In this document: positions 9,635-52,269 of the stretch, in pieces
How positions within the stretch are numbered: position 1 is the stretch's first letter
Layout: each line of letters starts with the position of its first letter
NCBI GenBank assembly: GCA_963665295.1
Contig: OY762209.1
Span: 2,528,001 to 2,592,000 of the forward strand
Direction: 5' to 3'
DNA: 64,000 nt
From: Syntrophorhabdaceae bacterium
GTDB lineage: Bacteria; Desulfobacterota; Syntrophorhabdia; Syntrophorhabdales; Syntrophorhabdaceae
Program-made: the position numbers and the translations under genes
Notes under the pieces: generated by a model
Database searches by the model: none
What the model was told of the DNA's origin: nothing
What the model saw: only the letters and a program-made list of their open reading frames with translations

Positions 9635-9696
9635 TTGACAGCGTTATCGCTAGCAATATACAACGCAGCTATCGGTGGCTCTTATTATATACAACG
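9635..9696 (+). promoter_or_regulatory. Promoter (TTGACA-N16-TATACA) overlapped by two ModE-like boxes
   Basis: CGTT-N16-AACG at 9642-9665 and CGGT-N16-AACG at 9673-9696. Confidence 0.6.
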
Positions 9697-9887
9697 GGAA
9701 CATGTGACGACCCTAAAGTCCGACCGGAAGGTCCGGACGGTAGAGTTTCGCCGGTGCCTTGGCGACCTGTGAACCTGCAGTCTCATACATGGATTCCCCT
9801 GACGCGGGACCTACCGGAAGAGCGACCGGCGGTTCTCACCCATGAGGAGGAAGTTCGGGTGTCTCAAAAGGATAGAAGAGGAAAGGG

Positions 9888-12803
9888 ATGAGGAAGGAAT
9901 TGGAACACTGCCGAAGAAGACGCGTCACCATGGCCTTATGGTTTTTCACGACATGCCTTCTCATTGCATCAATCCCCGTACATGCAAAGACAAAAAACCT
10001 TCTTGAGTTCAACTCCGGAAGCCATGTCCTGGGCTTTTCCTCCGGGTCCATGTACATGGCCTCCGGCACCCATGTGCTGAGGGTAGAGTTCGTGGGTGGG
10101 AAGTCGGTAGCCCCCGTCTCCAAGGAGGGACTCTCCTCCGATGGGAAGGCCCCTCCCTTGAGCAAGGTAATCTATCCGAACATATGGGACGGAGTGGACA
10201 TCGTCTATGAAGGAGCCAAAGGCTCCATCGTGAAGTCTACCTATACGGTGGCTGCGGGCAAGGCCCCCGGTTCCATCCGCCTCCGCTACAACCGGCCCCT
10301 TACCCTGGATAAGAAGGGCAACCTCGTGGTCCGCTTCGAGACGGGGGAAATGACGGAAAGCAGGCCCGTCGCGTGGCAGGTCGTGGAGGGCAAAAAGAAA
10401 CCCGTCATGGTGGCGTACAACCTCCAATCGGATAAGGAAGTGGGGTTTACGGTAAAGGATTATGACACAAGCCTGCCGCTGGTGATAGACCCCTATTTTT
10501 CGTGGAATACCTTCCTCGGGGGAAGCGGCACCGATTACGGATACGCCATAGCCGTGGATTCCGGCGGGAACATCTATGTGGCGGGAGCGAGCAGCGCGAC
10601 GTGGGGGACGAGCCCTGTAAGGGCATACACCTCAAACTATGATGCCTTCGTGGCCAAGCTGACGGCCGACGGGGTACTCGTCTGGAACACTTTCGTTGGG
10701 GGAGACGGCGTTGATTATAGTCAGGCGGTAACGGTCGATTCCGCAGGTAACGTCTATGTAGCAGGCATCAGCACCGCCGCGTGGGGCGCCCCGGTGAGGG
10801 GCTACACATCAGGCTACGACGGTTTCGCCGCCAAGCTTACTCCTGACGGCGCCCTGGTGTGGAACACCTTCCTCGGGGGGAAGGGCAATGACTGGGGAAG
10901 CGGTATAGCCGTGGATTTGGCTGGAAATACCTACGTGACCGGATACGGCGACGGCGCATGGGGCTCGCCGATAAGGGGCTACGCAGGGGGGAATTACGAC
11001 GGTTTCGCCGCCAAACTTACTCCTGACGGCGCCCTGGTGTGGAACACCTTCCTCGGAAGCTATTTCGAGGACCACGGCACCGCCATAGCTGCGGATTCAG
11101 GCGGGAACGTGTATGTAGCCGGGCGCAGCGTCGGATCGTGGGGTACGCCGGTCAGGGACTACACAGCAGGCTATGACGCCTTCGTGGCGAAACTGACGGG
11201 CAACGGCGCCCTTATCTGGACCACCTTCCTTGGAGGTTACGACAGCGACTGGGGAAACGCGATAACCGTGGACTCGAACGATTACGTCTACGTAGCGGGA
11301 GACAGCTATGCAACATGGGGACTGCCTAAGAGGCCTTACAATGCCGACCTTGACGCCTTCGCCGCCAAACTTACTCCTGACGGCGCCCTCATCTGGAACA
11401 CCTTCCTGGGGGGGAAAGGGGCCGACCGCGGCAAGGGCATCGCCGTGGATTCGAGCGGCAATGCGCATGTGACGGGATACAGCACTGCCGCATGGGGCGC
11501 CCCGGTGCGGGGCTACGCATCCGACGACGACGCTTTTGTCGCTGAACTGGGCACCACCGATGGAATGCTTTTGTGGAGTGCCTTTCTCGGAGGAAGTGGG
11601 TCCGACCAGGGGTGGGGCGTCGCCGTAGATTCAAGCGGCGGGGTTTGTGTGGCCGGATACAGCACTGCCGCATGGGGCGCCCCGGTGAGGGGATACACAT
11701 CAGGCTACGACGCCTTTGTCGCCAGGTTCGGCTATTCAGGCACCTTTTCCCTTTCTGTGGCAACGGCCGGCACCGGGAGCGGCTCGGTTACCAGCAGTCC
11801 CTCCGGCATCGACTGCGGCTCCACATGCGTGGGTTCCTTCTCCCTGGGGTCGTCTGTCACCCTCACGGCCAACGCAAACACGGGCTCCACCTTCCGGGGC
11901 TTCACAGGCTGCGACTCTACCTCAAACAACACCTGTAAGGTGTTCTTAACCTCCGACAGGATCGTCACCGCGACGTTTACCACCACCGGGGCCTGTACCT
12001 ACACTATCTCTCCCGCGAGGGCGTCCTTTGCCTACAAAGGGGGCAGCGCCAACGTCACCGTTCAGGCCACGGGGACGAACTGCGCAAGCCCGTTCGTCTA
12101 CGTGAGCGATACGTGGATAGGGGCGAGCCTCACCTCATTCAAAAACAACAAGGGAACGGTAAAAGTAACCGCCCCGGCCAACAATTCCGTCACGGAGAGA
12201 AAAGGCGAGGTGACCATAGAGACGAATACCTTTACCATCACCCAGGTGGGATCCCCTTGTTCGCTTACTTCCATCTCTCCCACGAGCAAGACCTTCACCG
12301 CCTCGGGAGGATCACACTCGTTCGCCGTCACCGCCACCACAGGCTGCGGGTGGAGTGTATTATTAAATGCGGACTGGCTCACTCCCTTCACCGTTACCGG
12401 GACGGGAACGGACTCCGTCTCTTATGCCGCCCCGGTGAACACCACCGGAAAGCAGAGAAGCGGGAAGATCACTGTGTTCCTCACCGATACCCCAACAAAG
12501 AAGAAGGTGTTTACGGCCAAGCAATCCCCCTGTACCCTCACCATCTCCCCGACTGCCGACACCTTTATCTCTGAGGGGGGATCGGGTTTGCTTATTGTCA
12601 CCGCCCCCGAGGGTTGCCCGTGGAGTGTGTCGTCAAATGCGGACTGGCTCACCACCGGGACCGGCTCGGGGAGCGGAGAGGTTTTTGTCTCCTACACGGC
12701 CCTTAAGAACACTACGGGGAAGCAGAGGAGTGGGAAGATCACCGTATTCCTCACCGACACCCCTTCCAAGAAGAAGGCGTGTACGGTGACGGAGAAGAAA
12801 TAG
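9888..12803 (+). CDS. Secreted SBBP-repeat beta-propeller protein 1 (conserved N-domain, InlB-B-like and BACON-like domains)
   Basis: Signal peptide; ~170-aa N-domain ending PLVIDP; seven WxTFLGG..D.G..IAVD..GN.YV.G repeats; Cys-rich Ig-like modules; ends TEKK. Confidence 0.9.
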   Translation: MRKELEHCRRRRVTMALWFFTTCLLIASIPVHAKTKNLLEFNSGSHVLGFSSGSMYMASGTHVLRVEFVGGKSVAPVSKEGLSSDGKAPPLSKVIYPNIWDGVDIVYEGAKGSIVKSTYTVAAGKAPGSIRLRYNRPLTLDKKGNLVVRFETGEMTESRPVAWQVVEGKKKPVMVAYNLQSDKEVGFTVKDYDTSLPLVIDPYFSWNTFLGGSGTDYGYAIAVDSGGNIYVAGASSATWGTSPVRAYTSNYDAFVAKLTADGVLVWNTFVGGDGVDYSQAVTVDSAGNVYVAGISTAAWGAPVRGYTSGYDGFAAKLTPDGALVWNTFLGGKGNDWGSGIAVDLAGNTYVTGYGDGAWGSPIRGYAGGNYDGFAAKLTPDGALVWNTFLGSYFEDHGTAIAADSGGNVYVAGRSVGSWGTPVRDYTAGYDAFVAKLTGNGALIWTTFLGGYDSDWGNAITVDSNDYVYVAGDSYATWGLPKRPYNADLDAFAAKLTPDGALIWNTFLGGKGADRGKGIAVDSSGNAHVTGYSTAAWGAPVRGYASDDDAFVAELGTTDGMLLWSAFLGGSGSDQGWGVAVDSSGGVCVAGYSTAAWGAPVRGYTSGYDAFVARFGYSGTFSLSVATAGTGSGSVTSSPSGIDCGSTCVGSFSLGSSVTLTANANTGSTFRGFTGCDSTSNNTCKVFLTSDRIVTATFTTTGACTYTISPARASFAYKGGSANVTVQATGTNCASPFVYVSDTWIGASLTSFKNNKGTVKVTAPANNSVTERKGEVTIETNTFTITQVGSPCSLTSISPTSKTFTASGGSHSFAVTATTGCGWSVLLNADWLTPFTVTGTGTDSVSYAAPVNTTGKQRSGKITVFLTDTPTKKKVFTAKQSPCTLTISPTADTFISEGGSGLLIVTAPEGCPWSVSSNADWLTTGTGSGSGEVFVSYTALKNTTGKQRSGKITVFLTDTPSKKKACTVTEKK

Positions 12804-12871
12804 AAGAATCGGCCCCTCCCTCCATGAGAGGGGCACAGAGATAGATATCACTTTACACAAAGGAGCGAGAG

Positions 12872-15800
12872 ATGACAAGAAAACCGACGTACCACCGAAC
12901 ATGGTTCACCATTACTCCATGCCTCTTCACGGCATGCCTTCTCGTTGCGATGCTCTTTGCCTCGGCACATGCAAAGACAGCCGACGGGAAGGACCTCCTC
13001 CAGTTCACCTCGAAGGGCCATATCCTCGGCTTCTCTCCCGGTTCCATGTATATGGCTTCAGGCTCCCATATGCTCAAGGTGGAGTTTCTGGGAGGAAAGT
13101 CCGTCTCTCCCGTCTCCAAGGAAGGACCCTCCTCCGATGGAAAGGCCCCTCCCTTGAGCAAGGTAACCTATCCGAACATATGGGACGGAGTGGACATCGT
13201 CTATGAAGGAGCCAAAGGCTCCATCGTGAAGTCTACCTATACGGTGGCTGCGGGCAAGGCCCCAGGTTCCATCCGCCTCCGCTATAACAGACCCCTTACC
13301 CTCGATGAGAAGGGCAACCTCGTGGTCCGCTACGAAACCGGCACTATCACGGAATCCAAACCCATTGCCTGGCAGGTCATAGAAGGAAAGAAGAAGCCCG
13401 TCATGGTGGCGTACAACCTCCAATCGGATAAGGAAGTGGGGTTTACGGTAAAGGATTACGATAAGAGCATTCCGTTGGTTATCGACCCCTCTTTTGGGTG
13501 GTACACCTTCCTCGGAGGCAGCGGTACGGATTATGGACAGGCCATAGCCCTCGATTCGAGCGGGAACATCTATGTGGCAGGCTACAGCAGCGCCGCATGG
13601 ACGGAGACCCCGGTCAGGGCCTACTACGGGTCGGGCACCGACGCCTTCGTGGCCAAACTGAATCCCGACGGGTCCCTCGCCTGGTACACCTTCCTCGGGG
13701 GCAGCGGCACTGATAACGGATACGCCATAGCCCTCGATTCGAACGCCAACATCTATGTGACGGGCCAGAGCAACGCCACCTGGGGCTCGCCGCTGCAGGC
13801 TTACACATCAGGCTATGACGCCTTCGTGGCCAAACTGAATGCCTCCGGATCCCTCGTCTGGCACAGCTTCCTCGGGGGGAGCGGAAGTGATTGCGGGCAG
13901 GCCATAGCCCTCGATTCGAACGCCAACATCTATGTGACGGGCCAGAGCAACGCCACCTGGAGATCGCCGCTGCGGGCTTACACATCAGGCTATGACGCCT
14001 TCGTGGCCAAACTGACCACCGACGGCAGTCTCGTCTGGCACAGCTTCCTCGGGGGCAGCGGCACTGATAACGGATACGCCATAGCCCTCGATTCGAACGC
14101 CAACATCTATGTGACGGGGCGCAGCAGCGCCACCTGGGAAAGCCCGGTCAGGGCTTACACATCAGGCTATGACGCCTTCGTGGCCAAACTGACCACCGAC
14201 GGAAGCTTCCTGTGGAACACCTTCCTCGGCGGCAGTAGTACGGATTACGGGCAGGCCATAGCCCTCGATTCCGGCGGGAACATCTATGTGGCAGGCTACG
14301 GCAGCGCTGCATGGACGGAGACCCCGGTCAGGGCCTACGACGGGTCGGGCACCGACGCCTTCGTGGCCAGACTGAATCCCGACGGGTCCCTCGTCTGGCA
14401 TACCTTCCTCGGCGGCAGCGGCACTGATTACGGACAGGCTATCACCCTCGATTCCGGCGGCAATATCTATGTGACAGGACGCAGCAACGCCGCATGGACG
14501 GAGACCCCGGAGAGGGCTTACACATCAGGCTATGACGCCTTCGTGGCCAGACTGACCACCGATGGCAACCTCACCGGCCATACCTTCCTCGGCGGCAGCG
14601 GCACTGATTACGGCTACGGCGTAGCCCTCGATTCGAGCGACAACATCTACGTGACGGGCTGCAGCAGCACCGCATGGACGGAGACCCCGGTGAGGGTCTA
14701 CACGTCGAGCTATGACGCCTTCGTGGCCAGGGTCATGTTCCCTCCGCTCAGGTCCATGTCGGTCTCAGTGACGGGTGCGGGGACCGGCACGGTGACGAGC
14801 AGTCCCTCGGGCATTAACTGCGGCTCGACCTGTTCGGCTGCTTTCAGCCAGGAAACGACCGTTACCCTCACGGCTGTTGCGGGGGCCCACTCGGTCTTCA
14901 CCGGCTGGACCGGAGGGGGGTGCAGCGGAAACGGAACGTGCGTAATCACATTGGCCGGCGAAGACATTACTGTGACCGCGGAATTCTCCCTGGTCACCTT
15001 CACGGTGGGCGCATCGGTTGAGGGCGGCCACGGGACCGTGTCCCCGGACACCCAGGCCGTGACCTACAACACTTCTGCGACGATCACCATGACCCCCGAT
15101 CCGGGATACCACGTGGCGGGCGTGAGCGACACGGTGCAGGAAGCGCGGGGCGCGAAAAAAGGCTCGGTCACAAAGAAGGCGGTAAAACCGGCCGGTTCCG
15201 CCCCCACCTATACCATAAACCGCGTTACCGCCAACCATGCCGTAGTAGTCACCTACGAGGCCGATCCCGAAACCCTCACCGCGAGGAAAACAGGCACGGG
15301 AAGCGGTACTCTCTCGGCCTCGGGCCTCACCTGCTCCGGCCTCACCTGCTCGGGGACATATGGGTATAATACTACGGTCACCATCACCGCCACTCCCGAT
15401 ACGGGTTCTTCCTTCACGGGATGGACCGGCTGCGACTCCACGTCGGGCCTCACCTGCGTGATCGCCATGACCGCCACCAGGAGTGTCACAGCCAACTTCG
15501 ACATAAGCAACTCATGCACCTACGCGGTCTCGTGGACGGACAAGGTTTTCGGCCACAAAGGAGGGAGCGCCAATATTACTCTCAGGGCCACGGGGGGCAA
15601 GACCTGCGCGAACCCCGAGGTTGCCTCGGAGGACGCCTGGGTAGGGGTCAGTCTGAGCGCGTTCAAGAACAACAAGGGCACTGTAAAGATAAGCGTTTTG
15701 CCCAACGACGGGGCGACGGAGAGGACCGGCACCGTGAGCATACGGGGTAACGCCTTCCACGTGGTCCAGGCCGGAGCGCCATGCTCCGTCTTCCTTCCTG

Positions 15801-16054
15801 CGACGAGCGACACCCTGGATGCAGAAGGAGGACCGCACTCCTTTGCCGTCAATGCCCCCACGGGCTGCGCATGGAGCGTATCATCATCGGAGGACTGGCT
15901 GACAGGCATCACCAGTGCGGGAACAGGGACGGGACTCGTCTCCTACATCGCCTCCGGGAATACCACGGGGAAGCAGAGGAGTGGGAAGATCACCGTATTC
16001 CTCACCGACACCCCTTCCAAGAAGAAGGTGTTTACGGTGAAAGAGAAGAAATAA
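12872..16054 (+). CDS. Secreted SBBP-repeat beta-propeller protein 2
   Basis: Same architecture; AAGGAG RBS. Confidence 0.9.
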   Translation: MTRKPTYHRTWFTITPCLFTACLLVAMLFASAHAKTADGKDLLQFTSKGHILGFSPGSMYMASGSHMLKVEFLGGKSVSPVSKEGPSSDGKAPPLSKVTYPNIWDGVDIVYEGAKGSIVKSTYTVAAGKAPGSIRLRYNRPLTLDEKGNLVVRYETGTITESKPIAWQVIEGKKKPVMVAYNLQSDKEVGFTVKDYDKSIPLVIDPSFGWYTFLGGSGTDYGQAIALDSSGNIYVAGYSSAAWTETPVRAYYGSGTDAFVAKLNPDGSLAWYTFLGGSGTDNGYAIALDSNANIYVTGQSNATWGSPLQAYTSGYDAFVAKLNASGSLVWHSFLGGSGSDCGQAIALDSNANIYVTGQSNATWRSPLRAYTSGYDAFVAKLTTDGSLVWHSFLGGSGTDNGYAIALDSNANIYVTGRSSATWESPVRAYTSGYDAFVAKLTTDGSFLWNTFLGGSSTDYGQAIALDSGGNIYVAGYGSAAWTETPVRAYDGSGTDAFVARLNPDGSLVWHTFLGGSGTDYGQAITLDSGGNIYVTGRSNAAWTETPERAYTSGYDAFVARLTTDGNLTGHTFLGGSGTDYGYGVALDSSDNIYVTGCSSTAWTETPVRVYTSSYDAFVARVMFPPLRSMSVSVTGAGTGTVTSSPSGINCGSTCSAAFSQETTVTLTAVAGAHSVFTGWTGGGCSGNGTCVITLAGEDITVTAEFSLVTFTVGASVEGGHGTVSPDTQAVTYNTSATITMTPDPGYHVAGVSDTVQEARGAKKGSVTKKAVKPAGSAPTYTINRVTANHAVVVTYEADPETLTARKTGTGSGTLSASGLTCSGLTCSGTYGYNTTVTITATPDTGSSFTGWTGCDSTSGLTCVIAMTATRSVTANFDISNSCTYAVSWTDKVFGHKGGSANITLRATGGKTCANPEVASEDAWVGVSLSAFKNNKGTVKISVLPNDGATERTGTVSIRGNAFHVVQAGAPCSVFLPATSDTLDAEGGPHSFAVNAPTGCAWSVSSSEDWLTGITSAGTGTGLVSYIASGNTTGKQRSGKITVFLTDTPSKKKVFTVKEKK

Positions 16055-16117: not shown

Positions 16118-19100
16118 ATGAAAACAGCATATACACACTCCCCGCATTGCGGAAGACGTCCTGCAGCCCTGTTTCTTTTCCTGGCGTGCCTTCTTCTCTC
16201 CGTTCTTCTCATCCCGAAGGCCTATGCAAAGGAGGCGAATCTCCTCCAGTTCACCTCGAAGGGCCATATCCTCGGCTTCTCTCCCGGTTCCATGTATATG
16301 GCTTCAGGCTCCCATATGCTCAAGGTGGAGTTTCTGGGAGGAAAGTCCGTCTCTCCCGTCTCCAAGGAAGGACCCTCCTCCGATGGAAAGGCCCCTCCCT
16401 TGAGCAAGGTAACCTATCCGAACATATGGGACGGAGTGGACATCGTCTATGAAGGAGCCAAAGGCTCCATCGTGAAGTCTACCTATACGGTGGCTGCGGG
16501 CAAGGCCCCAGGTTCCATCCGCCTCCGCTATAACAGACCCCTTACCCTCGATGAGAAGGGCAACCTCGTGGTCCGCTACGAAACCGGCACTATCACGGAA
16601 TCCAAACCCATTGCCTGGCAGGTCATAGAAGGAAAGAAGAAGCCCGTCATGGTGGCGTACAACCTCCAATCGGATAAGGAAGTGGGGTTTACGGTAAAGG
16701 ATTACGATAAGAGCATTCCGTTGGTTATCGACCCCTCTTTTGGGTGGTACACCTTCCTCGGAGGCAGCAGCTCCGATTACGTGGGGGGCATAGCCATGGA
16801 CTCGAGCGGAAACTTCTATGTGGCGGGACACAGCAACGCCACCTGGGGCACGCCGCTACGGCCTTACACGGGCGGTTGGGACGTTTTTGTCGCAAAACTG
16901 ACTGCCGACGGGCAGCTCGTCTGGAACACCTTCCTCGGTGGGAGCGGTGATGACAGGGGAGGCGGCACCTTGCGCGGGGGGGGCGGCTTTAGCAGGGCGG
17001 GCGGCATAGGCCTTGATTCGAGCGGGAACATCTATGTGGCGGGCACCAGCGGGGCCACGTGGGGAGACTCGGTGAGGGGCTACACGGGAGGCAGCGATGC
17101 CTTCGTCGCAAAACTGACTGCCGACGGGCAGCTCGTCTGGAACACCTTCCTCGGGGGGAGCGGCACTGATTCCGGGACTGCCATGGCCGTGGACGCCGGC
17201 GGGAACGTGTACGTGGTCGGAGACACTGACACCGGGTGGGGAAATCCGATAAACCTCTTCGCGGGGCTTACCGACTGCAGTGTTGCCAAGGTGACGTCAG
17301 ACGGGCAGCTCGCGTGGAACACCTTCTTTGGGTCTTACCTTTTGGATTACGGGTACGGTGTAGCCCTTGACCGGAGCGGCAACGTCTATGTGCTCGGAAC
17401 GAGCCAGGGGGGCGGGTGGGGCTCGCCGGTGAGGGCCTACACGGGAGGCGCCGATGCCTTCGTCGCCAAGATGACTCCCGACGGGGCGCTCACCTGGCAC
17501 GCCTTCCTCGGGGGAAGCGATTGGGATCACGGGTACGGCATAGCAGCGGATGAGAGCGGCAACATCTATACAACGGGATTGAGCAAGAAGACGTGGGGCT
17601 CGCCGGTGAGGGCCTTCTCAGGCGTCCCGGGAAACAGTTGGGACGTCTTCGTCGCCAAGATGACTTCCGACGGGGCGCTCACCTGGAACACCTTCCTCGG
17701 CGGGGCGACTGGGTGTGAGGAGGGGTGGGCCGTAACCTCCGACCCGAGGAACGGCAAAGTCTACGTGACGGGACAGAGCAACTACACGTGGGGCTCGCCG
17801 ATACGGGACTACGGCGGCTACTACGGGGACTCCGACGTCTTCGTCGCCGGGCTGGCTGCCGACGGAGAATTGATATGGAATACCTTCCTCCAATCGGGCA
17901 GCAACTCCGGCCCAGGCGGCATAGCGCTTGATTCGCAGAGAGACATCTACATCGCGGGGCTGACCACCGGCACGAAGTGGGGCTCGCCGATACGGGCCTA
18001 CTCCGGAGGCTACGACGGCTTCCTCATGAAGATCAACCGGGACAAGGAAATTTCCGTCACGTTGACGGGCACGGGAACCGGCACGGTGACAAGCAGCCCC
18101 GCCGGCATCGACTGCGGCTCGATTTGTTCCGCCAGCTTCGCCGAGGGGACGACCGTTACCCTCACGGCCGTTGCGGGGGCGGTCGGCACGACCTTCTACG
18201 GCTGGACCGGCGGGGGATGCAGTGGAACGGGTACCTGTGTGATAACGATGGCCGGCGAGGACATTGCCGTGTCCGCGGAATTCTCCCCCACCATCTATAC
18301 GGTCAACGCATCCGTTTCAGGAGGCCACGGGACCGTATCTCCCGAGACACAGGCCGTTACCCACAAATCCTCGGTGTCCATTACCATGACCCCCGATGCG
18401 GGGTACCATATCGTGACCATCACCGACAATGTCCAGGAGGAGGCTCGGGGCGCGAAAAAGGGCTCAGGCACAAGAAAAGTGGTCAAACCGGTCCGCTCCG
18501 CGAAATCCGGTTCCGGTTATGTGTACAGCATAAGCAGCATCACCGCCAACCATACGGTAGCGGTTGCCTACGAGGCCGACCTCTATACCCTCACCGCGAC
18601 GAAAACGGGCGCGGGGACCGGCACCCTCACCGCGACGGGCCTTGCCTGCTCGGGGAATACGTGCTCCGGGACCTATCCGTACGGAGCATCGGTGACCATC
18701 ACCGCCACTCACGATGCGGGCTCTTCCTTCACGGGATGGACCGGCTGCGACTCCACGTCGGGCAACACGTGCGTGATCGCCATAACCGCCAACAAGAGCG
18801 TTGCCGCCGCCTTCGGCATAAGCGATCCGTGCACCTATACAGTCTCGTGGAAGGATAAGCCCTTCGCGCACAAGGGGGGAAGCGCCACCATCACCGTCAA
18901 GGCCACGGGGGCGAAGACCTGTACGACCCCCACCCCCTCGGCAAGCGACGCGTGGATAACGACGAGCATGGGCTCCTTCGCGAACAACAAGGGAACGGTG
19001 AGGGTGACAATCTCGGCCAACGACTCGGTCACGGAGAGGACCGGCGCCGTCACCATACGGGGCAACAGCTTTCAAGTCACCCAGGACGGAACGCCCTGCA

Positions 19101-19639
19101 CCCTCACCATCTCCTCGACCGGCAATACCCTCTCCCCGGCGGGGGGAACGGACTCCTTTACCGTCAATGCCCCCACGGGCTGCGCATGGAGCGTATCATC
19201 ATCGGAGGACTGGCTGACAGGCATCACCAGTGCGGGAACAGGGACGGGACCCGTCTCCTACACGGCCTCTGAGAATACCACGGGGAAGCAGAGGATCGGG
19301 AAGATCACCGTATTCCTCACCGACACCCCAACGAAGAAGAAAGTATTTACGGTGAAGCAGTCACTCTGCACCCTCACCACCTCCTCGACCGGCAATACCC
19401 TCTCCCCTGTGGGAGGAACGGACTCCTTTACCGTCAATGCCCCCACGGGCTGCGCATGGAGCGTATCATCATCGGAGGACTGGCTGACAGGCATCACCAG
19501 TGCGGGAACAGGGACGGGACCCGTCTCCTACACGGCCTCTGAGAATACCACGGGGAAGCAGAGGAGCGGGAAGATCACCGTATTCCTCACCGACACCCCA
19601 ACGAAGAAGAAAGTGTTTACGGTGACGGAGAAGAAATAG
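16118..19639 (+). CDS. Secreted SBBP-repeat beta-propeller protein 3
   Basis: Same architecture; duplicated terminal BACON-like module. Confidence 0.9.
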   Translation: MKTAYTHSPHCGRRPAALFLFLACLLLSVLLIPKAYAKEANLLQFTSKGHILGFSPGSMYMASGSHMLKVEFLGGKSVSPVSKEGPSSDGKAPPLSKVTYPNIWDGVDIVYEGAKGSIVKSTYTVAAGKAPGSIRLRYNRPLTLDEKGNLVVRYETGTITESKPIAWQVIEGKKKPVMVAYNLQSDKEVGFTVKDYDKSIPLVIDPSFGWYTFLGGSSSDYVGGIAMDSSGNFYVAGHSNATWGTPLRPYTGGWDVFVAKLTADGQLVWNTFLGGSGDDRGGGTLRGGGGFSRAGGIGLDSSGNIYVAGTSGATWGDSVRGYTGGSDAFVAKLTADGQLVWNTFLGGSGTDSGTAMAVDAGGNVYVVGDTDTGWGNPINLFAGLTDCSVAKVTSDGQLAWNTFFGSYLLDYGYGVALDRSGNVYVLGTSQGGGWGSPVRAYTGGADAFVAKMTPDGALTWHAFLGGSDWDHGYGIAADESGNIYTTGLSKKTWGSPVRAFSGVPGNSWDVFVAKMTSDGALTWNTFLGGATGCEEGWAVTSDPRNGKVYVTGQSNYTWGSPIRDYGGYYGDSDVFVAGLAADGELIWNTFLQSGSNSGPGGIALDSQRDIYIAGLTTGTKWGSPIRAYSGGYDGFLMKINRDKEISVTLTGTGTGTVTSSPAGIDCGSICSASFAEGTTVTLTAVAGAVGTTFYGWTGGGCSGTGTCVITMAGEDIAVSAEFSPTIYTVNASVSGGHGTVSPETQAVTHKSSVSITMTPDAGYHIVTITDNVQEEARGAKKGSGTRKVVKPVRSAKSGSGYVYSISSITANHTVAVAYEADLYTLTATKTGAGTGTLTATGLACSGNTCSGTYPYGASVTITATHDAGSSFTGWTGCDSTSGNTCVIAITANKSVAAAFGISDPCTYTVSWKDKPFAHKGGSATITVKATGAKTCTTPTPSASDAWITTSMGSFANNKGTVRVTISANDSVTERTGAVTIRGNSFQVTQDGTPCTLTISSTGNTLSPAGGTDSFTVNAPTGCAWSVSSSEDWLTGITSAGTGTGPVSYTASENTTGKQRIGKITVFLTDTPTKKKVFTVKQSLCTLTTSSTGNTLSPVGGTDSFTVNAPTGCAWSVSSSEDWLTGITSAGTGTGPVSYTASENTTGKQRSGKITVFLTDTPTKKKVFTVTEKK

Positions 19640-26374: not shown

Positions 26375-26402
26375 GAACCCGGTCCAGGCGAAGGAGGTTT
26401 TT

Positions 26403-32714: not shown

Positions 32715-32749
32715 ATCGTTATATATCAAGAAAGATAACGCCATGTCAA
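32715..32749 (-). promoter_or_regulatory. Receptor promoter (TTGACA-N18-TATATA) overlapped by a ModE-like box
   Basis: ATCGTTATATA-TCAAGA-AAGATAACGCC at 32715-32742; -35 at 32744-32749 on the minus strand. Confidence 0.65.
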
Positions 32750-32966: not shown

Positions 32967-33028
32967 TTGACAGCGTTATCGTGAGTAATATACAACGCAG
33001 CTACCGTTGGCTCTTATTATATACAACG
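32967..33028 (+). promoter_or_regulatory. Promoter overlapped by two ModE-like boxes (second arm)
   Basis: TTGACA 32967-32972; CGTT-N16-AACG at 32974-32997 and 33005-33028. Confidence 0.62.
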
Positions 33029-39443: not shown

Positions 39444-39530
39444 AGACGTGAAGATACGGATAAAGGGGCGGGCCGCGAAGGCCCGCCCCCCTTACACCAT
39501 GAGAAGCGCTCCGGCGCGGAAGGAGGTTAT

Positions 39531-42227: not shown

Positions 42228-42788
42228 ATGAAACGATCACTGGTTTTTGCAGTATTCTTGATGTTGACTGCCGCCACTTTCGCCTGGGCCGCGGCGATTC
42301 AACTCCCCAGGACAGGCCAGACCACGTGCTATGATTCCGGGGGTACGGCAATCGACTGCTGGGGCACCGGCCAGGACGGGGAGTACGAGGCGGGAGCCGC
42401 ATGGCCTTCCGAGCGGTTCGCGGTGTACGGGGACTGTGTGACCGACAACCTCACGGGCCTCATGTGGCCGAAGGCCGCGCAAAACACCGCGTCGAGTTGG
42501 ACCAATGCCCTGGACTACGCAAACAATCTCACCCTCTGCGGCTACTCCGACTGGCGGCTTCCCAACGTCAACGAACTGGAAAGCCTGCTCAATTCGGAAC
42601 GGGCGAGCAGCGCCGACTGGCTCAACAGCCAGGGGTTCAGCGGCGTGCAATCAGTTAATTACTATTGGACGTCGTCGGTCTCGAACTACGACGGCCGCGC
42701 CTGGATCAGACAGCTGGCGAAGGGCGATCTGCGCACCGGCACCAAGCTTAACACCAATTACGTGTGGCCCGTCCGGGATGCGCAATGA
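42228..42788 (+). CDS. Secreted DUF1566 (Lcl C-terminal / CLec-fold) protein
   Basis: TGQ...GQDG, VTDNLTGLMW, GYSDWRLPN..EL.SL, YYWTSS and YVWPVR motifs. Confidence 0.85.
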   Translation: MKRSLVFAVFLMLTAATFAWAAAIQLPRTGQTTCYDSGGTAIDCWGTGQDGEYEAGAAWPSERFAVYGDCVTDNLTGLMWPKAAQNTASSWTNALDYANNLTLCGYSDWRLPNVNELESLLNSERASSADWLNSQGFSGVQSVNYYWTSSVSNYDGRAWIRQLAKGDLRTGTKLNTNYVWPVRDAQ

Positions 42789-42802
42789 AGGAGGATATCT
42801 TG

Positions 42803-45607: not shown

Positions 45608-45747
45608 CCGACACCCCGACCAAGAAGAAGGTCTTTACCGTGACGGAAAAGAAGAAATAGAGACGTGAAGATACGGATAAAGGGGCGGGCCGCGAAGGCC
45701 CGCCCCCCTTACACCATGAGAAGCGCTCCGGCGCGGAAGGAGGTTAT

Positions 45748-48390
45748 GTGAAGTCCCTACTTGGCCAAGTATTACCTGTGTTGTCTCTCCTCAGCCTGCT
45801 CTTTTTTGCCTGTTTCCCGGCAACCCCTGTCCACGGGGTGGTGAAGATCGATTCAGAGCTTCGAAAGCTCATGAGCGAGGATGAATCGACGGGCTATATC
45901 ATACACTTCAAATCGAAGCTCAGCCTCAAGAAGGCATACGCCATGGAATGGAAGGCACGGGGTCGCTTCGTCGCCGACACCCTGAGAGATACGGCAAACG
46001 AGTCCCAGGCCGGCGTAAAAGCGTACCTCAAGGACAGGAACGCCCTGTACAAAAGCTTCTGGGTAGGGAATATGATCGTGGTGGAGGCGTCCGACCTCGC
46101 CACTCTCAACGGCCTCGAGGACTTCCCCGAAATAGACCGGATCGCCCGGCGACCCAGGATAGTTCTCCACAAACCGGTGGAAACGGGGGCAGCATCCCAT
46201 GAAGTCACGGGCGTGGAGCCTAACCTCTCCCACGTGAGGGCCGACCAGGTGTGGACTACCCTCGGCATCAAGGGGAGCGGGGTAACGGTGGCGAATATCG
46301 ACACGGGCGTGCGCTACACCCACCAGGCCCTTGTGAACCAGTACCGGGGAAATTCGGGCGGGGTCTACGACCACAACTACAACTGGTGGGACGCCACGGG
46401 CAGTTACCCCACCTCTCCCGATGATGAGAACGGTCATGGCACTCACACCATGGGCATCATGGTGGGTGACGATGGTGGATCCCGCCGGATCGGCATGGCG
46501 CCGGAGGCGAAGTGGATCGCGTGCCGGGGATGCACGGCGGACTCTTGCATCGACGAGGCCGTTCTTGAATGCGCCCAGTGGATGGTTGCCCCGTGGGACC
46601 TGAGTAAGTCTTCGCCCAATCCTGCCTTGCGGCCCCAGGTGGTGAACAACTCATGGGGCGACTGCAGCCAAAGTTATGACGGCTGGTTTCAGGCCGTCGT
46701 GGACGCCTGGCACGCGGCCGGCATATATCCCGTCTTTTCGGGCGGCAACGCAAGCGACTGCGGATATTCCAGATGGGTGCCGCCGTGCGGGACCGTGGGC
46801 AATCCCGGACGGTACGGGAATGTGACCGCCGTGGGCCCCACGGATAAGTCAAGCGACGGAGTATCGTACACCGCCACCAGGGGCCCCACGGACAGCGCCG
46901 ACACGATAAACCCCGGTGGCTACCCGTACCTGAAACCCCAGGTGATGGCACCGGGCATCTCGATCGTCTCGTCCTACAATACCGGCGATGACGGGTACCA
47001 GTGGATTACCGGCGCTTCGACGGCGGCTCCTCATGTGGCCGGTCTTGTTGCCCTCATACTCAGCGGGTGCCCCAGCCTTTCGGAAAGCTATGGTGAAGTG
47101 GAGACGGCCATTCAGAATTCCGCAGTCCCCATCTCCTGGAGCTCAAGTTGTGGAAACGAGGGACCGGACGCTGTGCCGAACAACGTAACGGGCTGGGGCA
47201 GAATCGATGCCCTCGCAGCCCTCACGCTCACCTCGGGGATCTGCACCACCGGCATTGTCGGCGGGACCGTGCGGGATGCCCGCACGCAAAAACCCATCGA
47301 GGGTGCCAACGTGACGGGGGCAGGCGCCGCGGTGACGAATGCCTCGGGCCAATTCACATTGAAGCCCGTCTCCGAAGGATCGTGGACGGTGAGGGCCTCG
47401 GCCCACGGTTACTACGACCAGTCCGCCACGGCCCGCGTGACCAGGAGCGTCACCACGACCGTCGATATCAGCCTTGTGCCGAAGGGCATGACCACACTGA
47501 CCGGCAAGGTGACGGACGGCTCGGGCGCGAAATGGCCGCTTTACGCGACCCTCGCGGCAACGAACAACAATGTGACGGTGGGAGCCTCCACCAACGCCTC
47601 CACGGGGGCCTACACAATGAAGGTGTACAGGGACACCGATTATGCCTTCAAGGTTTCCTCTCCCGGGTACGCTGCCGCGGAGGCCACCCTTACGACAACG
47701 GGAAAATTCAGCCCGAGGAACTTCAGCCTCATGGTCGGCCCCGATTGCTCCGCCCAGGGATACACGCTTTCCGGGGGCGAGTGCTCTGTCCGGAGCGGGG
47801 GCCTCGTCACCGGCCTCACCAGGGACGGGAACACAAAGAGCCCGCTGCCGGGCATGGTGGTGAGTTCCCTATCAGGGTCGGCAACGAGCGACTCGGGCGG
47901 GAGGTACATCGTGTTCTCGCCTGCGGGAAAAAACTCGTTTACCGCCAACCCGTCGGCCCTCTCGAACTACGGTAGTCTTACGCGACGGGTGACTGCTGCG
48001 GCGGGCAAGACCGTTAGCTCCGATTTTGACCTTCCCGCGCCTGTATTGAAAGGTCCGAAGAGTGTGAGCGTGACCCTCGCCCAGGGCTCGACGAAGAAGA
48101 CGACGGTCAAACTGCAGAACGCCGGGGGGGTTTCGACACCCTTCACCCTTACCTCGACTGAGGCGGCGTGGCTCGGTATATCACCCGTCTCGGATACCCT
48201 GGGAGCGAAGAAGAGCGAGTCCGTCGCGCTCGCCTTCGACGCCGCCGGACTGAGCACCGGTACTTACAACGCCGTGATAACCGTGAGCGGGGCGACCCCG
48301 TACGACTCCTCGTCCATTTTCGTGACCATGAAGGTGACTGCGGGGAAGAAGGGCGGGATATCAGGTGAATCCGACAATGAAGGGGAATAG
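45748..48390 (+). CDS. Secreted S8 subtilase 3 (variant Ser motif GASTAAPHV)
   Basis: IDTG, GHGTH, SGGN and GAST. Confidence 0.88.
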   Translation: MKSLLGQVLPVLSLLSLLFFACFPATPVHGVVKIDSELRKLMSEDESTGYIIHFKSKLSLKKAYAMEWKARGRFVADTLRDTANESQAGVKAYLKDRNALYKSFWVGNMIVVEASDLATLNGLEDFPEIDRIARRPRIVLHKPVETGAASHEVTGVEPNLSHVRADQVWTTLGIKGSGVTVANIDTGVRYTHQALVNQYRGNSGGVYDHNYNWWDATGSYPTSPDDENGHGTHTMGIMVGDDGGSRRIGMAPEAKWIACRGCTADSCIDEAVLECAQWMVAPWDLSKSSPNPALRPQVVNNSWGDCSQSYDGWFQAVVDAWHAAGIYPVFSGGNASDCGYSRWVPPCGTVGNPGRYGNVTAVGPTDKSSDGVSYTATRGPTDSADTINPGGYPYLKPQVMAPGISIVSSYNTGDDGYQWITGASTAAPHVAGLVALILSGCPSLSESYGEVETAIQNSAVPISWSSSCGNEGPDAVPNNVTGWGRIDALAALTLTSGICTTGIVGGTVRDARTQKPIEGANVTGAGAAVTNASGQFTLKPVSEGSWTVRASAHGYYDQSATARVTRSVTTTVDISLVPKGMTTLTGKVTDGSGAKWPLYATLAATNNNVTVGASTNASTGAYTMKVYRDTDYAFKVSSPGYAAAEATLTTTGKFSPRNFSLMVGPDCSAQGYTLSGGECSVRSGGLVTGLTRDGNTKSPLPGMVVSSLSGSATSDSGGRYIVFSPAGKNSFTANPSALSNYGSLTRRVTAAAGKTVSSDFDLPAPVLKGPKSVSVTLAQGSTKKTTVKLQNAGGVSTPFTLTSTEAAWLGISPVSDTLGAKKSESVALAFDAAGLSTGTYNAVITVSGATPYDSSSIFVTMKVTAGKKGGISGESDNEGE

Positions 48391-48487
48391 ACGCACAATG
48401 CGCCGTTATTCCGAAGGGGTTCTTGTGAAACGATCGTTCATATCTGCAAAACACCATGAGAAGCGCTCCGGCGCGGAAGGAGGTTAT

Positions 48488-51124
48488 GTGAAGTCCCTAC
48501 TTGGCCAAGTATTACCTGTGTTGTCTCTCCTCAGCCTGCTCTTTTTTGCCTGTTTCCCGGCAACCCCTGTCCACGGGGTGGTGAAGATCGATTCAGAGCT
48601 TCGAAAGCTCATGAGCGAGGATGAATCGACGGGCTATATCATACACTTCAAATCGAAGCTCAGCCTCAAGAAGGCATACGCCATGGAATGGAAGGCACGG
48701 GGTCGCTTCGTCGCCGACACCCTGAGAGATACGGCAAACGAGTCCCAGGCCGGCGTAAAAGCGTACCTCAAGGACAGGAACGCCCTGTACAAAAGCTTCT
48801 GGGTAGGGAATATGATCGTGGTGGAGGCGTCCGACCTCGCCACTCTCAACGGCCTCGAGGACTTCCCCGAAATAGACCGGATCGCCCGGCGACCGAGGAT
48901 AGTTCTCCACGAGCCCGTGGAAATATTTCCTGCCACCCAAAACTCGAGTATAGCGCCGAACCTCTCCCACGTGAGGGTCGACCAGGTGTGGACCACCCTC
49001 GGCATCAAGGGGAGCGGGGTAACGGTGGCGAATATCGACACGGGCGTGCGCTACACCCACCAGGCCCTCGTGAACCAGTACCGGGGCAATTCGGGCGGGG
49101 CCTATAACCACAACTACAACTGGTGGGACCCCTACGGCGACCATCCCGCCGAGCCGGGCGACGATCTCGGCCACGGGAGCCACACCATGGGCGTCATGGT
49201 GGGCTCCGACGGAGGATCGAACCAGACCGGCATGGCACCGGAGGCAAGGTGGATCGCCTGCAGGGCATGCAGCACGAGCTCCTGCAGCGACACGGCCCTC
49301 TTCGAATGCGGCCAGTGGGTGATCGCCCCGTGGGACTTGAACAAGTCTTCTCCCGATCCGGACTTGAGGCCCCAGGTGGTGAACAACTCGTGGAGCGACT
49401 GCAGCCGGAGCTATGAGGACTTTTTTCAGGATGTCATCGATGCCTGGCATGCGGCCGGCATCTACCCTGTCTTTTCAGCCGGTAATGCAGGCAACTGTGG
49501 ATACCCGGAGCCTCCGGGATGCGGGACCATAGGCGGCCCCGGGCGACTCGCCAATGTGACCGCAGTGGGCGCAACAGGCACAAGCGACGGGCAGTATGCG
49601 AGCTTCTCGAACTGGGGCCCCACGGACACCCCCGACACGGTGAACCCCGGCGGCTATCCCTACGTGAAGCCCCAGGTAGTGGCGCCGGGGGCCTCGATCG
49701 TTTCTTCCTATAACTCCGGCGATGGCGGATATGTATCCATGTCCGGTACTTCCATGGCGGCCCCGCACGTGGCGGGCCTCGTAGCGCTTATGCTCAACGC
49801 GTGCCCAAGCCTTTCCCAAATGTATGGAAAAGCGGAGACACTCATTCAGAGGACTGCCGTCCCCATCCCGTATGCGTCGAACTGCGGAGGCGAGGGGCCG
49901 GGCAACGTGCCGAACAATGCAACGGGCTGGGGCGAGATCGACGCCCTCGCAGCGGTTCGGTCCGCCGCAGAGAGCTGCACATGCGGCGCGGTCACCGGGA
50001 CGGTACGGGACGCCCGCACCAAGAATGCGATCGAGGGCGCGAAAGTGACAGGTGCCGCGGGCACGACCACGGATGCATCGGGTCGATTCACCCTGGACTA
50101 TCTCCCGCCGGGGTCGCAGAACCTGAATGCCTCCCGCCAGGGTTATTACGACAGGACCATCACGATGACCATCGCCAAAAACGCCACTACGACCGTCGAT
50201 ATCAGTCTTGAGCCGAAAGCCATGACCACGCTGACCGGCAAGGTGACGGACGGCTCCGGGGCGAAATGGCCGCTTTACGGGACCGTGGCGGCTACGAGCA
50301 ATGACGAGACGGTGAGGGCCTTCACCAACGCCGCTACCGGGGCCTACACAATGAAGTTGTACAAAGACACTGCGTATGCTTTGCGGGTCTCCTCTACCGG
50401 GTATACCACCGCGGAGACCACCTTTACCACGACGGGAAAATTCAGCCCGAGGAATTTCAGCCTCATGGTCGGCCCCGATTGCTCCGCCCAGGGATACGCG
50501 CTTTCCGGGGGCGCGTGCGCTGTCCGGAGCGGGGGTCTCGTCACCGGCCTCACCAGGGACGCGAACACGAAGAGCCTGGTGCCGGGCATTGTGGTGAATT
50601 CCATATTCGGCACGGGAACGAGCGACTCGAGCGGAAGGTATGTCTTTTTCTCACCTGCAGGGAACAGCCCTTTTGTCGGCAACCCCTCGGCCCTCTCGAA
50701 CTACGGCAGCCTTACCCGATGGGTGACCGTCACAGCGGGCAAGATCGTCACCTCCAATTTCGACCTTCCTGCGCCTGTATTGAAGGGGCCGAAGAGTGTG
50801 AGCGTGACCCTTGCTCAAGGCTCGACGAAGAAGGCCACGGTCAAGCTGCAGAACGCCGGGGGGGTCTCGACGCCCTTCACCCTTACCTCGACCGAGGCGG
50901 CGTGGCTCGGTATATCACCCGCCTCGGGCGTCCTGGAGGCAAAGAAGACTCAATCCGTCACGCTCAGCTTCGACGCTGCCGGCATGAGCGCGGGCGTGCA
51001 CAGCGCTCTGATAAATGTGAGCGGCGTGACCCCGTACGACCCTCTGTCCATTCCTGTGACGATGAAGGTAACGGCCGCGAAGAAAGGCGGGACATGGGAT
51101 GAGACCAACTATGGAGATGAATAG
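48488..51124 (+). CDS. Secreted S8 subtilase 4 (start re-called at GTG 48488)
   Basis: RBS and start identical to the 39531 and 45748 genes; IDTG, GHGSH, SAGN and GTSMAAPHV. Confidence 0.88.
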   Translation: MKSLLGQVLPVLSLLSLLFFACFPATPVHGVVKIDSELRKLMSEDESTGYIIHFKSKLSLKKAYAMEWKARGRFVADTLRDTANESQAGVKAYLKDRNALYKSFWVGNMIVVEASDLATLNGLEDFPEIDRIARRPRIVLHEPVEIFPATQNSSIAPNLSHVRVDQVWTTLGIKGSGVTVANIDTGVRYTHQALVNQYRGNSGGAYNHNYNWWDPYGDHPAEPGDDLGHGSHTMGVMVGSDGGSNQTGMAPEARWIACRACSTSSCSDTALFECGQWVIAPWDLNKSSPDPDLRPQVVNNSWSDCSRSYEDFFQDVIDAWHAAGIYPVFSAGNAGNCGYPEPPGCGTIGGPGRLANVTAVGATGTSDGQYASFSNWGPTDTPDTVNPGGYPYVKPQVVAPGASIVSSYNSGDGGYVSMSGTSMAAPHVAGLVALMLNACPSLSQMYGKAETLIQRTAVPIPYASNCGGEGPGNVPNNATGWGEIDALAAVRSAAESCTCGAVTGTVRDARTKNAIEGAKVTGAAGTTTDASGRFTLDYLPPGSQNLNASRQGYYDRTITMTIAKNATTTVDISLEPKAMTTLTGKVTDGSGAKWPLYGTVAATSNDETVRAFTNAATGAYTMKLYKDTAYALRVSSTGYTTAETTFTTTGKFSPRNFSLMVGPDCSAQGYALSGGACAVRSGGLVTGLTRDANTKSLVPGIVVNSIFGTGTSDSSGRYVFFSPAGNSPFVGNPSALSNYGSLTRWVTVTAGKIVTSNFDLPAPVLKGPKSVSVTLAQGSTKKATVKLQNAGGVSTPFTLTSTEAAWLGISPASGVLEAKKTQSVTLSFDAAGMSAGVHSALINVSGVTPYDPLSIPVTMKVTAAKKGGTWDETNYGDE

Positions 51125-51147
51125 CCCGTCCGGCGATAAGGAGAGAA

Positions 51148-52269
51148 GTGATGGATTTCACAAGAAAAAACCTCAGTTTCTTCATAGCCCTTTTATTGTC
51201 GATAGCGCTGTTGGCCGGTTCGGCGAGCGGGCGGCAGAACGAGGAGACCTGGAAATTCGCATTCATCAGCGATACGCAGGGAGACTACAGTAACCCTGCC
51301 GACCATTCCTGTATCAACGGGCCGGTCTTGCGGGCGATCGCCAAAGATATCGCAGAGGAAAGACCCGACTTCGTCCTTGTCGGGGGCGACCTGGTAAACG
51401 GCTGGCACCGGAATGGCGGCACGGATTACGCAACCCAGTTCGCAAACTGGAAATCCGCCATGGAACCTGTATACAAGGAAGGTATCTCTGTTTTTCCCGT
51501 GCGGGGAAACCATGAGAGCGGTCCCGACCGCGTTGCTCTCCCTCCTCTTCCCGCGCACCTCGAACCTCCTCCCGGAGCGCTCACAAAACTGGAGGAGGCG
51601 TTCAAGGACGCCTTTCCGCGGGCATATGGATATATACCGAAGAATGGGCCGAAAGGCGAGGAGGGTCTCACCTTCGGTTTCACGCACAAGAGTGTTTTCG
51701 TTATTGGGATGGACCAGTACGGACCTCATCCGCACCGCGTAAACCAGGAATGGCTCGACCGCGAACTTGCGGCCAACACGAAACCCCACGTATTTCTCTA
51801 TGGTCACGAACCGGCTTTCGGAGTCGGTCACATCGATAACCTCGCCTTCTACCCCGCGGACCGGGACCGCCTTTGGGACAGCTTCGGGAAGGGAGGCGGA
51901 AGGGTTTATTTTTCGGGACACGACCACTTTTATAATAGGGCGGCTATCCCAGACAAGACGGGGAACCGGATCTACCAGGTGATTGCAGGCACGGGAGGAG
52001 GCCGTTTCAGGGCGTGGAGCGGGGCGTACGCCGAAAGAGAGAGGGTGAAGGGAGAATACAGCGATTCCGGCAAGCACGGATACATTCTTGTCACCATTGA
52101 AGGTTCGAGGGCTACGGTTGCCTGGAAGGCGTTGCGCCGGGCAAACGGGGTTGACCTGTGGGAGGTTCGCGATTCCTTCTCATACACCCTTCCCGGCGTA
52201 GTAAACAAGATTCGTGGAGCAGACAGCGGTCTTTCGGCAGGTCCGCCGCTTGCACCGGTTCACCCCTGA
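51148..52269 (+). CDS. Secreted calcineurin-like metallophosphoesterase
   Basis: Signal peptide; SDTQ, GGDLV, RGNHE, GHEP and SGHDH motifs. Confidence 0.88.
   Translation: MMDFTRKNLSFFIALLLSIALLAGSASGRQNEETWKFAFISDTQGDYSNPADHSCINGPVLRAIAKDIAEERPDFVLVGGDLVNGWHRNGGTDYATQFANWKSAMEPVYKEGISVFPVRGNHESGPDRVALPPLPAHLEPPPGALTKLEEAFKDAFPRAYGYIPKNGPKGEEGLTFGFTHKSVFVIGMDQYGPHPHRVNQEWLDRELAANTKPHVFLYGHEPAFGVGHIDNLAFYPADRDRLWDSFGKGGGRVYFSGHDHFYNRAAIPDKTGNRIYQVIAGTGGGRFRAWSGAYAERERVKGEYSDSGKHGYILVTIEGSRATVAWKALRRANGVDLWEVRDSFSYTLPGVVNKIRGADSGLSAGPPLAPVHP

Follow-up and report, generated by a model that had tools for sequence, protein, structure and literature searches.

What a receptor gene and some 39 kb of genes for secreted proteins have to do with one another is the question raised by a locus at positions 9,635 to 52,269 of a 64,000-nucleotide stretch of DNA from a Syntrophorhabdaceae bacterium (GenBank assembly GCA_963665295.1, contig OY762209.1, positions 2,528,001 to 2,592,000; hereafter the window), the host chromosome of which is a 5.5-Mb single-contig genome (G000). 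By Pfam, the locus comprises 14 plus-strand genes in two arms, namely seven SBBP, four Peptidase_S8 (S8), two Lcl_C (= DUF1566) and one Metallophos gene, with a TonB-dependent receptor (TBDR) encoded divergently on the minus strand between the arms. The initial annotation of the window gave this inventory correctly and interpreted it as a module, akin to a polysaccharide utilization locus (PUL), that captures, degrades, and imports a molybdenum or tungsten (Mo/W) cargo. Our analysis retains the Mo/W part of that proposal and leads to a reading in two layers, to which we would assign an about even chance of being correct: the locus may specify a foraging coat, produced under Mo/W starvation and feeding the TBDR, in which a conserved core of the TBDR and the terminal metallophosphoesterase (MPE) is accompanied by a lineage-specific array of propellers and proteases.

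The link to Mo/W begins at the promoters, each of which (TBDR, arm 1, and arm 2) has its own ModE-type operator beside a -35 hexamer. On the plus strand, the arm-1 promoter (9635..9696) consists of TTGACA at 9635 and tandem boxes at 9642 (17.0 bits) and 9673 (6.8 bits), and the arm-2 promoter (32967..33028) of TTGACA and tandem boxes at 32974 (17.8 bits) and 33005 (11.3 bits), both pairs being spaced by 31 bp where other sites of the genome are spaced by 27-33 bp. The TBDR promoter (32717..32749, minus strand) has its box at 32717-32740 (26.2 bits), 3 nt from TTGACA on that strand. The operator had been described as shared; the motif is indeed the same, but the arms and the TBDR have separate boxes, the tandem box of arm 2 (plus strand) and that of the TBDR (minus strand) lying 257 bp apart. 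Each box is 1-3 nt from a TTGACA facing its own gene, and an exact TTGACA is equally close at 3.4% of AT-rich intergenic positions. With a matrix from 14 seed sites outside the window, which were picked by consensus match and are therefore not fully independent, the sites at 32717, 32974, and 9642 rank 8, 16, and 17 among 5.5 million positions, and the pattern of -35 plus box is found in 28 of 96 genomes of the class against a single hit in a reversed control. In G000, boxes also precede a modA/wtpA-like gene, exbBD, a FecCD permease, PBP genes, and an island of a paralogous TBDR with tonB, FmdE, PBP, and modABC; overall, 13 of 2244 long open reading frames (ORFs) have an upstream box of at least 15 bits. 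Across the class, the boxed genes examined encode mostly ModA-type binding proteins, TBDRs, DUF364, MoeA, TonB, radical SAM (rSAM) proteins, methyltransferases, and Mop, with some unrelated ones, and a short modE gene adjoins boxes in other genomes and, in G015, stands head-to-head with the ortholog of the TBDR; tupA-like genes are likewise preceded by the box. We take the boxes to be real operators of a short ModE type, binding itself being predicted. In this respect, the locus resembles the E. coli/Geobacter ModE regulon (modABC), as the motif matches the E. coli ModE consensus ATCGNTATATA-N6-TATATANCGAT given in PMC545781, and overlaps molybdate/tungstate transport promoters in the class; it differs in that the regulator has a helix-turn-helix (HTH) domain only and in that the boxed genes extend to TBDRs, a phosphoesterase, and some 39 kb coding for secreted propellers and proteases. 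A sigma-70 scan missed the boxed promoters, the -10 elements of which are non-canonical, and they therefore rest on the -35 hexamer and a pattern common to other sites of the regulon.

Some other boxes have neighbors of separate interest. A boxed cluster at L006:867-5312 (G000:C1:855867-860312) encodes PBP2, an rSAM protein, and a secreted RCC1-repeat protein, possibly a secreted propeller of the regulon, and a boxed 363-aa lipoprotein in G470 (L242:634-1725) has no Pfam match. Strong boxes at G000:C1:168012, 1121790, 3156228, and 3321625 face tiny ORFs or nothing recognizable, possibly small proteins, sRNAs, or relics, and one at G000:C1:1264097 (L008:5097 onward), with a -35, faces an RHS-like relic, after which come small secreted ORFs in duplicate; a C1-peptidase-BACON gene near this last box was dropped as a regulon member, as the box points away from it.

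The receptor supplies the second line of evidence. The TBDR (30496..32613, minus strand) matches a paralog in the main Mo/W island of G000 at 69% and has orthologs in 4 of 40 relatives. An upstream box is present at all four family loci with an assembled promoter, the fifth locus ending at a contig end, and the neighbors of the orthologs include DUF364, TonB, FmdE, methyltransferases, PBP2, FecCD, MoeA, rSAM, and FdhD genes, in agreement with the Mo/W link first suggested for the receptor. PMC2954201 connects DUF364 with Mo/W transport and with pterin-like ligands. No SBBP or S8 gene lies beside the TBDR orthologs of relatives. In the phylum, the TBDR is present in 11 of 400 genomes, with a box within 1.5 kb at 4 of 12 loci and at none of five loci with 34-37% homologs, and the named homologs belong mostly to Syntrophorhabdus/Syntrophobacter-type anaerobes. 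The receptor passes no curated model of a characterized substrate class (BtuB, siderophore, and heme), all 17 NCBIfam TBDR models scoring below their cut-offs; in a profile search the nearest solved structure is Cir (E 4e-36), and the single sequence has no PDB match. Taken together, these comparisons support the assignment of the TBDR to a Mo/W-linked family.

The same association is seen for the calcineurin-like MPE (51148..52269, plus strand), which has matches in 15 of 95 other class genomes, 10 of them close (52-69%). Six of these 10 are boxed directly or at the head of their gene run, three more lie beside Mo/W cluster genes, and one (G010) has neither, which places nine of the 10 in boxed or Mo/W uptake clusters and bears out the Mo/W connection proposed for this enzyme. 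There is no box of at least 13 bits in the 1.5-kb flanks in the five genomes with only distant homologs, nor any within 1.5 kb of two orthologs outside the class, the neighbors of which, by eye only, resemble cluster or molybdenum cofactor (Moco) enzyme genes. The MPE has no PDB match; enzymes of the calcineurin-like type could act on a pyranopterin cofactor by splitting off its nucleotide or phosphate, or could bind molybdate or tungstate as phosphate mimics. The main Mo/W island of G000 has no MPE, and because the window carries the only close copy in the genome, arm 2 can be viewed as a boxed promoter and its MPE with seven surface genes between them. On this comparative evidence, the TBDR and the terminal MPE are a conserved, uncharacterized gene set of the class with a predicted role in Mo/W uptake. 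The occurrence of MoeA in the Mo/W clusters fits pterin salvage, and G000 has four AOR-family genes. Two further genes of the clusters deserve mention. One, the product of which measures about 380-400 aa and matches nothing in Pfam or the PDB, recurs beside rSAM and MPE genes (L280:251-1390, L260:1716-2924, G000:C1:186338-187534); an 'AlkP-like' label given to it by eye found no support and was dropped. The other, in boxed clusters, encodes a signal-peptide protein with fused Oxidored_molyb-like and tetrapyrrole methylase domains (L270:4492-6243, G000:C1:178244-180004).

The array itself is of a different nature. Arm 1 encodes, on the plus strand, SBBP-A1 (9888..12803), SBBP-A2 (12872..16054), SBBP-A3 (16118..19639), SBBP-A4 (19697..23113), SBBP-A5 (23171..26374), and an S8 protease with CarboxypepD_reg and DUF4394 domains (26403..29852). 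Arm 2, on the same strand, encodes SBBP-B1 (33223..36207), the counterpart of SBBP-A1 (74% overall), SBBP-B2 (36204..39443), an S8 protease (39531..42170), an Lcl_C protein (42228..42788), a second Lcl_C protein (42785..45607), two more S8 proteases (45748..48390 and 48488..51124), and the MPE. The seven SBBP proteins, all assigned by Pfam, combine DUF7948, SBBP, InlB-B, and BACON domains, A1 and A2 having a signal, DUF7948, a seven-bladed CylK-type propeller, InlB-B, and three BACON domains. Both proteins annotated as DUF1566 are Lcl_C, but the second is a fusion of Lcl_C with InlB-B, an alkaline-phosphatase-superfamily domain of PafA-like phosphodiesterase (PDE) fold, and anchor-D. By hydropathy only, each of the 15 locus proteins starts with a hydrophobic stretch and shows nothing like a transmembrane segment after it, consistent with the signal peptides reported for them, and their N termini, read by eye, look to be of the signal-peptidase-I type. 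Reading frames are open in all 14 arm genes, about 39 kb of coding sequence being intact and under purifying selection. The gaps within the arms measure -4 to 140 bp and contain no sigma-70-like promoter that we could find, so each arm is probably a single operon. Some intergenic regions carry GC-rich hairpins without a U-tract on the plus strand (12812-12834, 19646-19673, 23120-23147), candidates for mRNA-stabilizing or antisense-terminating elements.

The propellers are diversified, as had been proposed, and in a manner that fits binding surfaces. The AlphaFold model of an SBBP propeller is seven-bladed (pLDDT 92.3), and an alignment of 48 blades varies most (2.7-3.3 bits) at columns of the inter-blade loop, where strand A begins, and at both ends of the B-C loop, which together form the predicted top face, with one further variable column in the A-B turn; the variability is rich in Tyr, Trp, Asn, and Arg. 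The closest solved propeller is CylK (PDB 7RON; Z 52.1 with the next at 35.5, rmsd 1.9 A over 381 residues, 27% identity). In CylK, according to PMC8916777, an N-terminal Ca-binding beta-roll supplies the catalytic Arg105, whereas here DUF7948 takes the place of the beta-roll, the matches cover the propeller only, and the locus has no alkylation pathway genes. SBBP repeat proteins at large (PF06739; Leptospira LipL53 family) share the blade repeat and form a large family (3661 hits among 6023 candidates), but elsewhere they are mostly single-copy and unboxed, and the locus protein falls below the LipL53 cut-off (145.7 vs 400). In all four S8 proteases, the Asp/His/Ser triad and the oxyanion Asn are kept while residues near the substrate sites differ, and in the protease at 45748..48390 the residues around the catalytic Ser are altered. 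Diversification of the Lcl genes by a diversity-generating retroelement (DGR) was considered and rejected, as no template was found for either gene; one pair was flagged near a reverse transcriptase, and the locus is not involved.

The array appears to have been built and multiplied by unequal recombination that is still ongoing, judging by near-identical blocks that run over gene ends, spacers, and the starts of the next genes. SBBP-A4 is flanked by a 1455-bp direct repeat of 99.9% identity (18869-20323 = 22343-23797), and the 5' end of the S8 gene at 45748 lies inside a 569-bp block of 100% identity (39385-39953 = 45602-46170). The N-terminal domains of SBBP A2-A5 differ at dS of 0-0.08, and the propellers at dS of 0.7-1.7 with dN/dS of about 0.2-0.6; the propellers thus look like old, selected cassettes between homogenized flanks. 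Positive selection on them is not shown, pairwise dN/dS being below 1 and dS near saturation. On a larger scale, the leaders of the two arms are homologous, as first noted (94% identity, 9496-9900 vs 32829-33235), and arm 1 is additionally preceded by a 359-nt remnant of a second TBDR copy (9138..9496, minus strand; 98.3% to 30498-30857, 337 bp identical), which has its own last codons and stop and abuts the arm-1 leader directly. Because the remnant has its own last codons, we infer that a unit of TBDR, leader, and array was duplicated and that one receptor then decayed. Both arm promoters are retained, and the four box substitutions between the arms are all off consensus-matching positions, which is suggestive only. 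A riboswitch in the arm leader was rejected, as its folding is not unusual (z 0.15) and it has only short, weak matches in 68 family genomes, mostly at the boxes; Rfam and tRNA scans of the window gave no hits. Unique parts of arm 1 are found on contigs from four runs (at most three samples from two studies), which may be the source, and none among the matches listed spans arm 1 or bridges the junction with the TBDR remnant.

Outside G000, the array does not travel with the core. Of 78 SBBP loci taken from genome contigs (the best of 290 relatives), one has an S8 neighbor, none has a TBDR, Lcl, PDE, or MPE gene, and one has a box of at least 15 bits, which is not upstream. None of 48 metagenome loci, many of them short, has any of the partners; nine phylum loci have neither partner nor nearby upstream box; and among 68 family genomes, S8 occurs in two and a short-N SBBP in one, all unboxed. 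The combination of SBBP, S8, and TBDR, with boxes, which the initial annotation expected in related genomes, is therefore absent from all four collections (0/78, 0/48, 0/9, and 0/68). Partial co-occurrence, which is not the system, is seen in G019, where SBBP and S8 genes are 53 kb apart on one contig and an SBBP gene is near an Lcl gene, and in G015, which has the TBDR, the MPE, and, on other contigs, two unboxed S8 genes; in addition, one SBBP and one S8 protein of the locus subfamilies (P0091 and P0244) are encoded on 16,550-bp JGI contigs, probably one contig. Within G000, hidden Markov models of the InlB-B, BACON, and anchor-D modules define a surface family of 64 proteins, eight in the window and 56 outside. 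The 50 outside members that were scanned comprise 4 S8, 5 C1, and 1 M28 peptidases, 4 Lcl, 2 Metallophos, 7 propellers, 1 GH9, 2 thaumatin, 4 DUF6242, 2 DUF3466, and 18 without a family. The array is thus, by domain content, the largest cluster and a concentrated, lineage-specific sample of the secreted surface family of this genome. The 64 proteins (L027-L059), which share InlB-B, BACON, or anchor-D modules, often have basic C termini, and carry protease, propeller, Lcl, GH9, and thaumatin heads, may all be sorted to the surface in one and the same way, the host being a diderm that has two GspD secretins.

Relatives do, however, place other large exoproteins under the same type of operator. 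Boxes in G005 and G459 precede exoproteins resembling those of two-partner secretion (TPS) and filamentous hemagglutinin (FHA), for which 26 class matches were obtained and 20 fetched. In the close clade (73-100%), a box lies within 1.5 kb upstream at 11 of 12 loci (seven genomes, two families), with a -35 facing the gene at 10, whereas none of eight distant homologs has a box. The clade is absent from G000, and the TBDR is also found in three of five clade genomes tested, as well as in G005. Since the genomes of the clade are kin, the boxed loci may represent perhaps one or two events. Large exoproteins under a ModE-type operator thus arose at least twice, with unrelated proteins, which suggests convergent Mo/W-starvation exoproteins and argues that the regulation of the arms is useful rather than accidental. 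The loci of the clade (L306-L312, L321-L325; G005, G459, G460, G471, G476, G478, and G479) encode candidate Mo/W 'phores' or adhesins, with GLUG repeats in the G005 copy; in G005 and G459 the TPS gene is followed by one for a secreted protein of about 300-320 aa, for which a by-eye 'ModA-like' label had no support and was dropped.

Under the foraging reading, surface genes would have moved into the space separating a boxed promoter from the MPE, after which the unit of TBDR, promoter, and array was duplicated and the arm-1 TBDR decayed. When Mo/W become scarce, ModE-type repression would lift, and the propellers would be exported by Sec and the type II secretion system (T2SS), for which the two GspD secretins offer a candidate route. 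Their variable top faces would bind extracellular protein or organic matter, the S8 subtilases would digest the bound material, and the MPE, in the periplasm or on the surface, would trim a phosphorylated Mo/W carrier (pyranopterin cofactor or chelate). The TBDR would import this carrier with the help of TonB/ExbBD, a FecCD-type ABC transporter, and MoeA genes elsewhere in the regulon. A more specific version, which we consider unlikely as a complete route, is that syntrophic anaerobes salvage Mo/W-pyranopterin cofactor from the proteins of other cells: ModE-controlled exoproteins (the propeller and subtilase coat here, TPS proteins in relatives) would capture and open molybdo- and tungstoproteins, the conserved MPE would remove a nucleotide or phosphate, the dedicated TBDR family would import the product, and cluster-encoded MoeA would reload it, amounting to a Mo/W counterpart of heme piracy. 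Protein-bound Moco has been described, in PMC7849362, as stable and bioavailable to C. elegans, which makes a bacterial route plausible.

Several observations weigh against the foraging reading. No lipoprotein or membrane anchor is evident, by eye or by hydropathy, in the array proteins, and no upstream box or adjacent TBDR was found at SBBP or S8 homologs outside G000 in the collections searched. None of the 56 other surface-family proteins of G000 has a box facing it, and in another family, the TBDR homologs of three genomes show no ModE-type box. The phosphoesterase part of the original proposal is not supported for the fusion protein at 42785, in which the Thr nucleophile of PafA aligns to Ala and the PafA-like domain looks catalytically dead. 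The ModE of G000, of 112 aa, is HTH-only and scores 73.3 bits against the TIGR00637 cut-off of 98.5; it has no TOBE domain, a separate TOBE gene preceding modA, so metal sensing would need a partner. Several strong G000 boxes point at a GntR-like gene, at an RHS-like relic, at tiny ORFs, or at nothing recognizable, implying that boxes do become detached from Mo genes. Lastly, the same tRNA-Arg(CCG) is flanked by SBBP-BACON genes without boxes in G001, a genome of the same genus, which implies that this site attracts SBBP-type genes anyway. At that site in G001 (L213:1655-5628), a truncated SBBP N terminus is followed by an SBBP-BACON gene without DUF7948.

In the main rival reading, only the TBDR and MPE would serve Mo/W uptake and the array would be a passenger, with ordinary surface genes inserted at a tRNA-Arg hotspot behind a ModE promoter, multiplied there, and brought under Mo/W control by accident while serving general adhesion and proteolysis. 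The composition of the locus mirrors the genome-wide surface family, its gene set does not recur with a box or TBDR, orphan boxes exist in G000, unboxed SBBP genes occupy the same tRNA in G001, and the near-identical blocks point to ongoing unequal recombination. We consider this explanation rather unlikely; against it stand the roughly 39 kb that are intact and purifying-selected behind two separately kept boxed promoters despite the decay of the arm-1 TBDR, and the boxes that relatives have at a clade of unrelated exoproteins. An improbable alternative is that Mo/W limitation induces attachment, the propellers and lectin-like Lcl proteins forming an adhesin coat that binds partner cells, flocs, or metal-holding minerals, and the S8 proteases maturing or shedding adhesins rather than releasing cargo. 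The aromatic, Asn- and Arg-rich top faces, the long InlB-B/BACON stalks, the hemagglutinin-like character of the analogous boxed exoproteins, and the apparent pseudo-enzyme of the PafA-like domain would all suit it, but four S8 proteases with differing substrate-site residues exceed what maturation requires, and an S8 neighbor is rare at SBBP homolog loci (the single case above). We regard as very improbable that the HTH-only ModE binds the operator without responding to Mo/W and that the locus answers another signal; the missing TOBE domain, the statement in PMC545781 that sensing by HTH-only ModE is unclear, and some boxed genes with no evident Mo link favor this, but most boxed genes of the class are for Mo/W transport or cofactors. 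Equally remote is a conserved, self-contained PUL-like capture-degrade-import system as first envisaged, for although its genes are co-located under a common operator type and one probable SBBP and S8 contig exists elsewhere, the set recurs in no collection searched, the same gene mix is scattered over the 56 other surface proteins, and the locus lacks SusD/SusC, TonB, and an ABC importer.

Bacteroidota PUL and RagAB loci likewise join surface binders, hydrolases, a TBDR, and BACON domains, but the present locus has a divergent TBDR, no evident lipoprotein anchors, no CAZymes, no conserved synteny, and no SusD or SusC/RagA family match among its proteins that would indicate a tandem susC-susD pair. 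The H. influenzae MolBC-A type II ABC importer has a parallel in the FecCD/PBP2-type importers that accompany the TBDR family in a Mo/W context; here, the importer genes lie outside the locus, and we know of no exoprotein array for MolABC. Haemophilus HxuABC and the Serratia Has system scavenge heme by means of a metal-starvation-controlled exoprotein and a TBDR. The logic is similar here, and relatives have boxed TPS exoproteins, but the metal would be Mo/W rather than Fe or heme and the exoproteins are non-TPS propellers and subtilases. In the literature searched, with subscription papers and supplements outside its scope, we found no paper on this composition or on a ModE-controlled exoprotein array, in keeping with the initial annotation, to which no described system of this kind was known. 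No paper joined FmdE or DUF364 with a TBDR, although supplementary regulon tables, likewise outside the scope, could list ModE-linked TBDRs, and the papers found did not describe energized outer-membrane uptake of Mo/W carriers or bacterial salvage of pterin cofactor.

We infer, at roughly balanced confidence, ModE-controlled, TBDR-based metal scavenging to which a lineage-specific surface array has been added: more than a paralog cluster of the usual scope, yet apparently no conserved stand-alone system. Although none of the other genomes searched yielded the complete gene set, the locus may point to a so far undescribed manner of Mo/W foraging, Mo/W being metals the supply of which matters to syntrophs using AOR-family enzymes. 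The array illustrates how a regulon can recruit a surface-protein family and diversify it through recombination between conserved flanks, and the comparison yields three conserved targets that are independent of the array, namely the TBDR family, the MPE, and the boxed TPS exoproteins.

Upstream of the locus, a 43-bp att duplicate of tRNA-Arg(CCG) at 8888-8930 closes a 64-kb prophage-like element (G000:C1:2472640-2536930), the integrase of which is at 7644-8834; the array locus lies outside that element. Downstream, positions 53082-60050 encode HdrA, an MvhD-HTH fusion, and NuoEFG-like proteins, and the HdrA homologs of four of five relatives tested have one in-frame TGA, possibly for selenocysteine, where the HdrA frame of the window is open.

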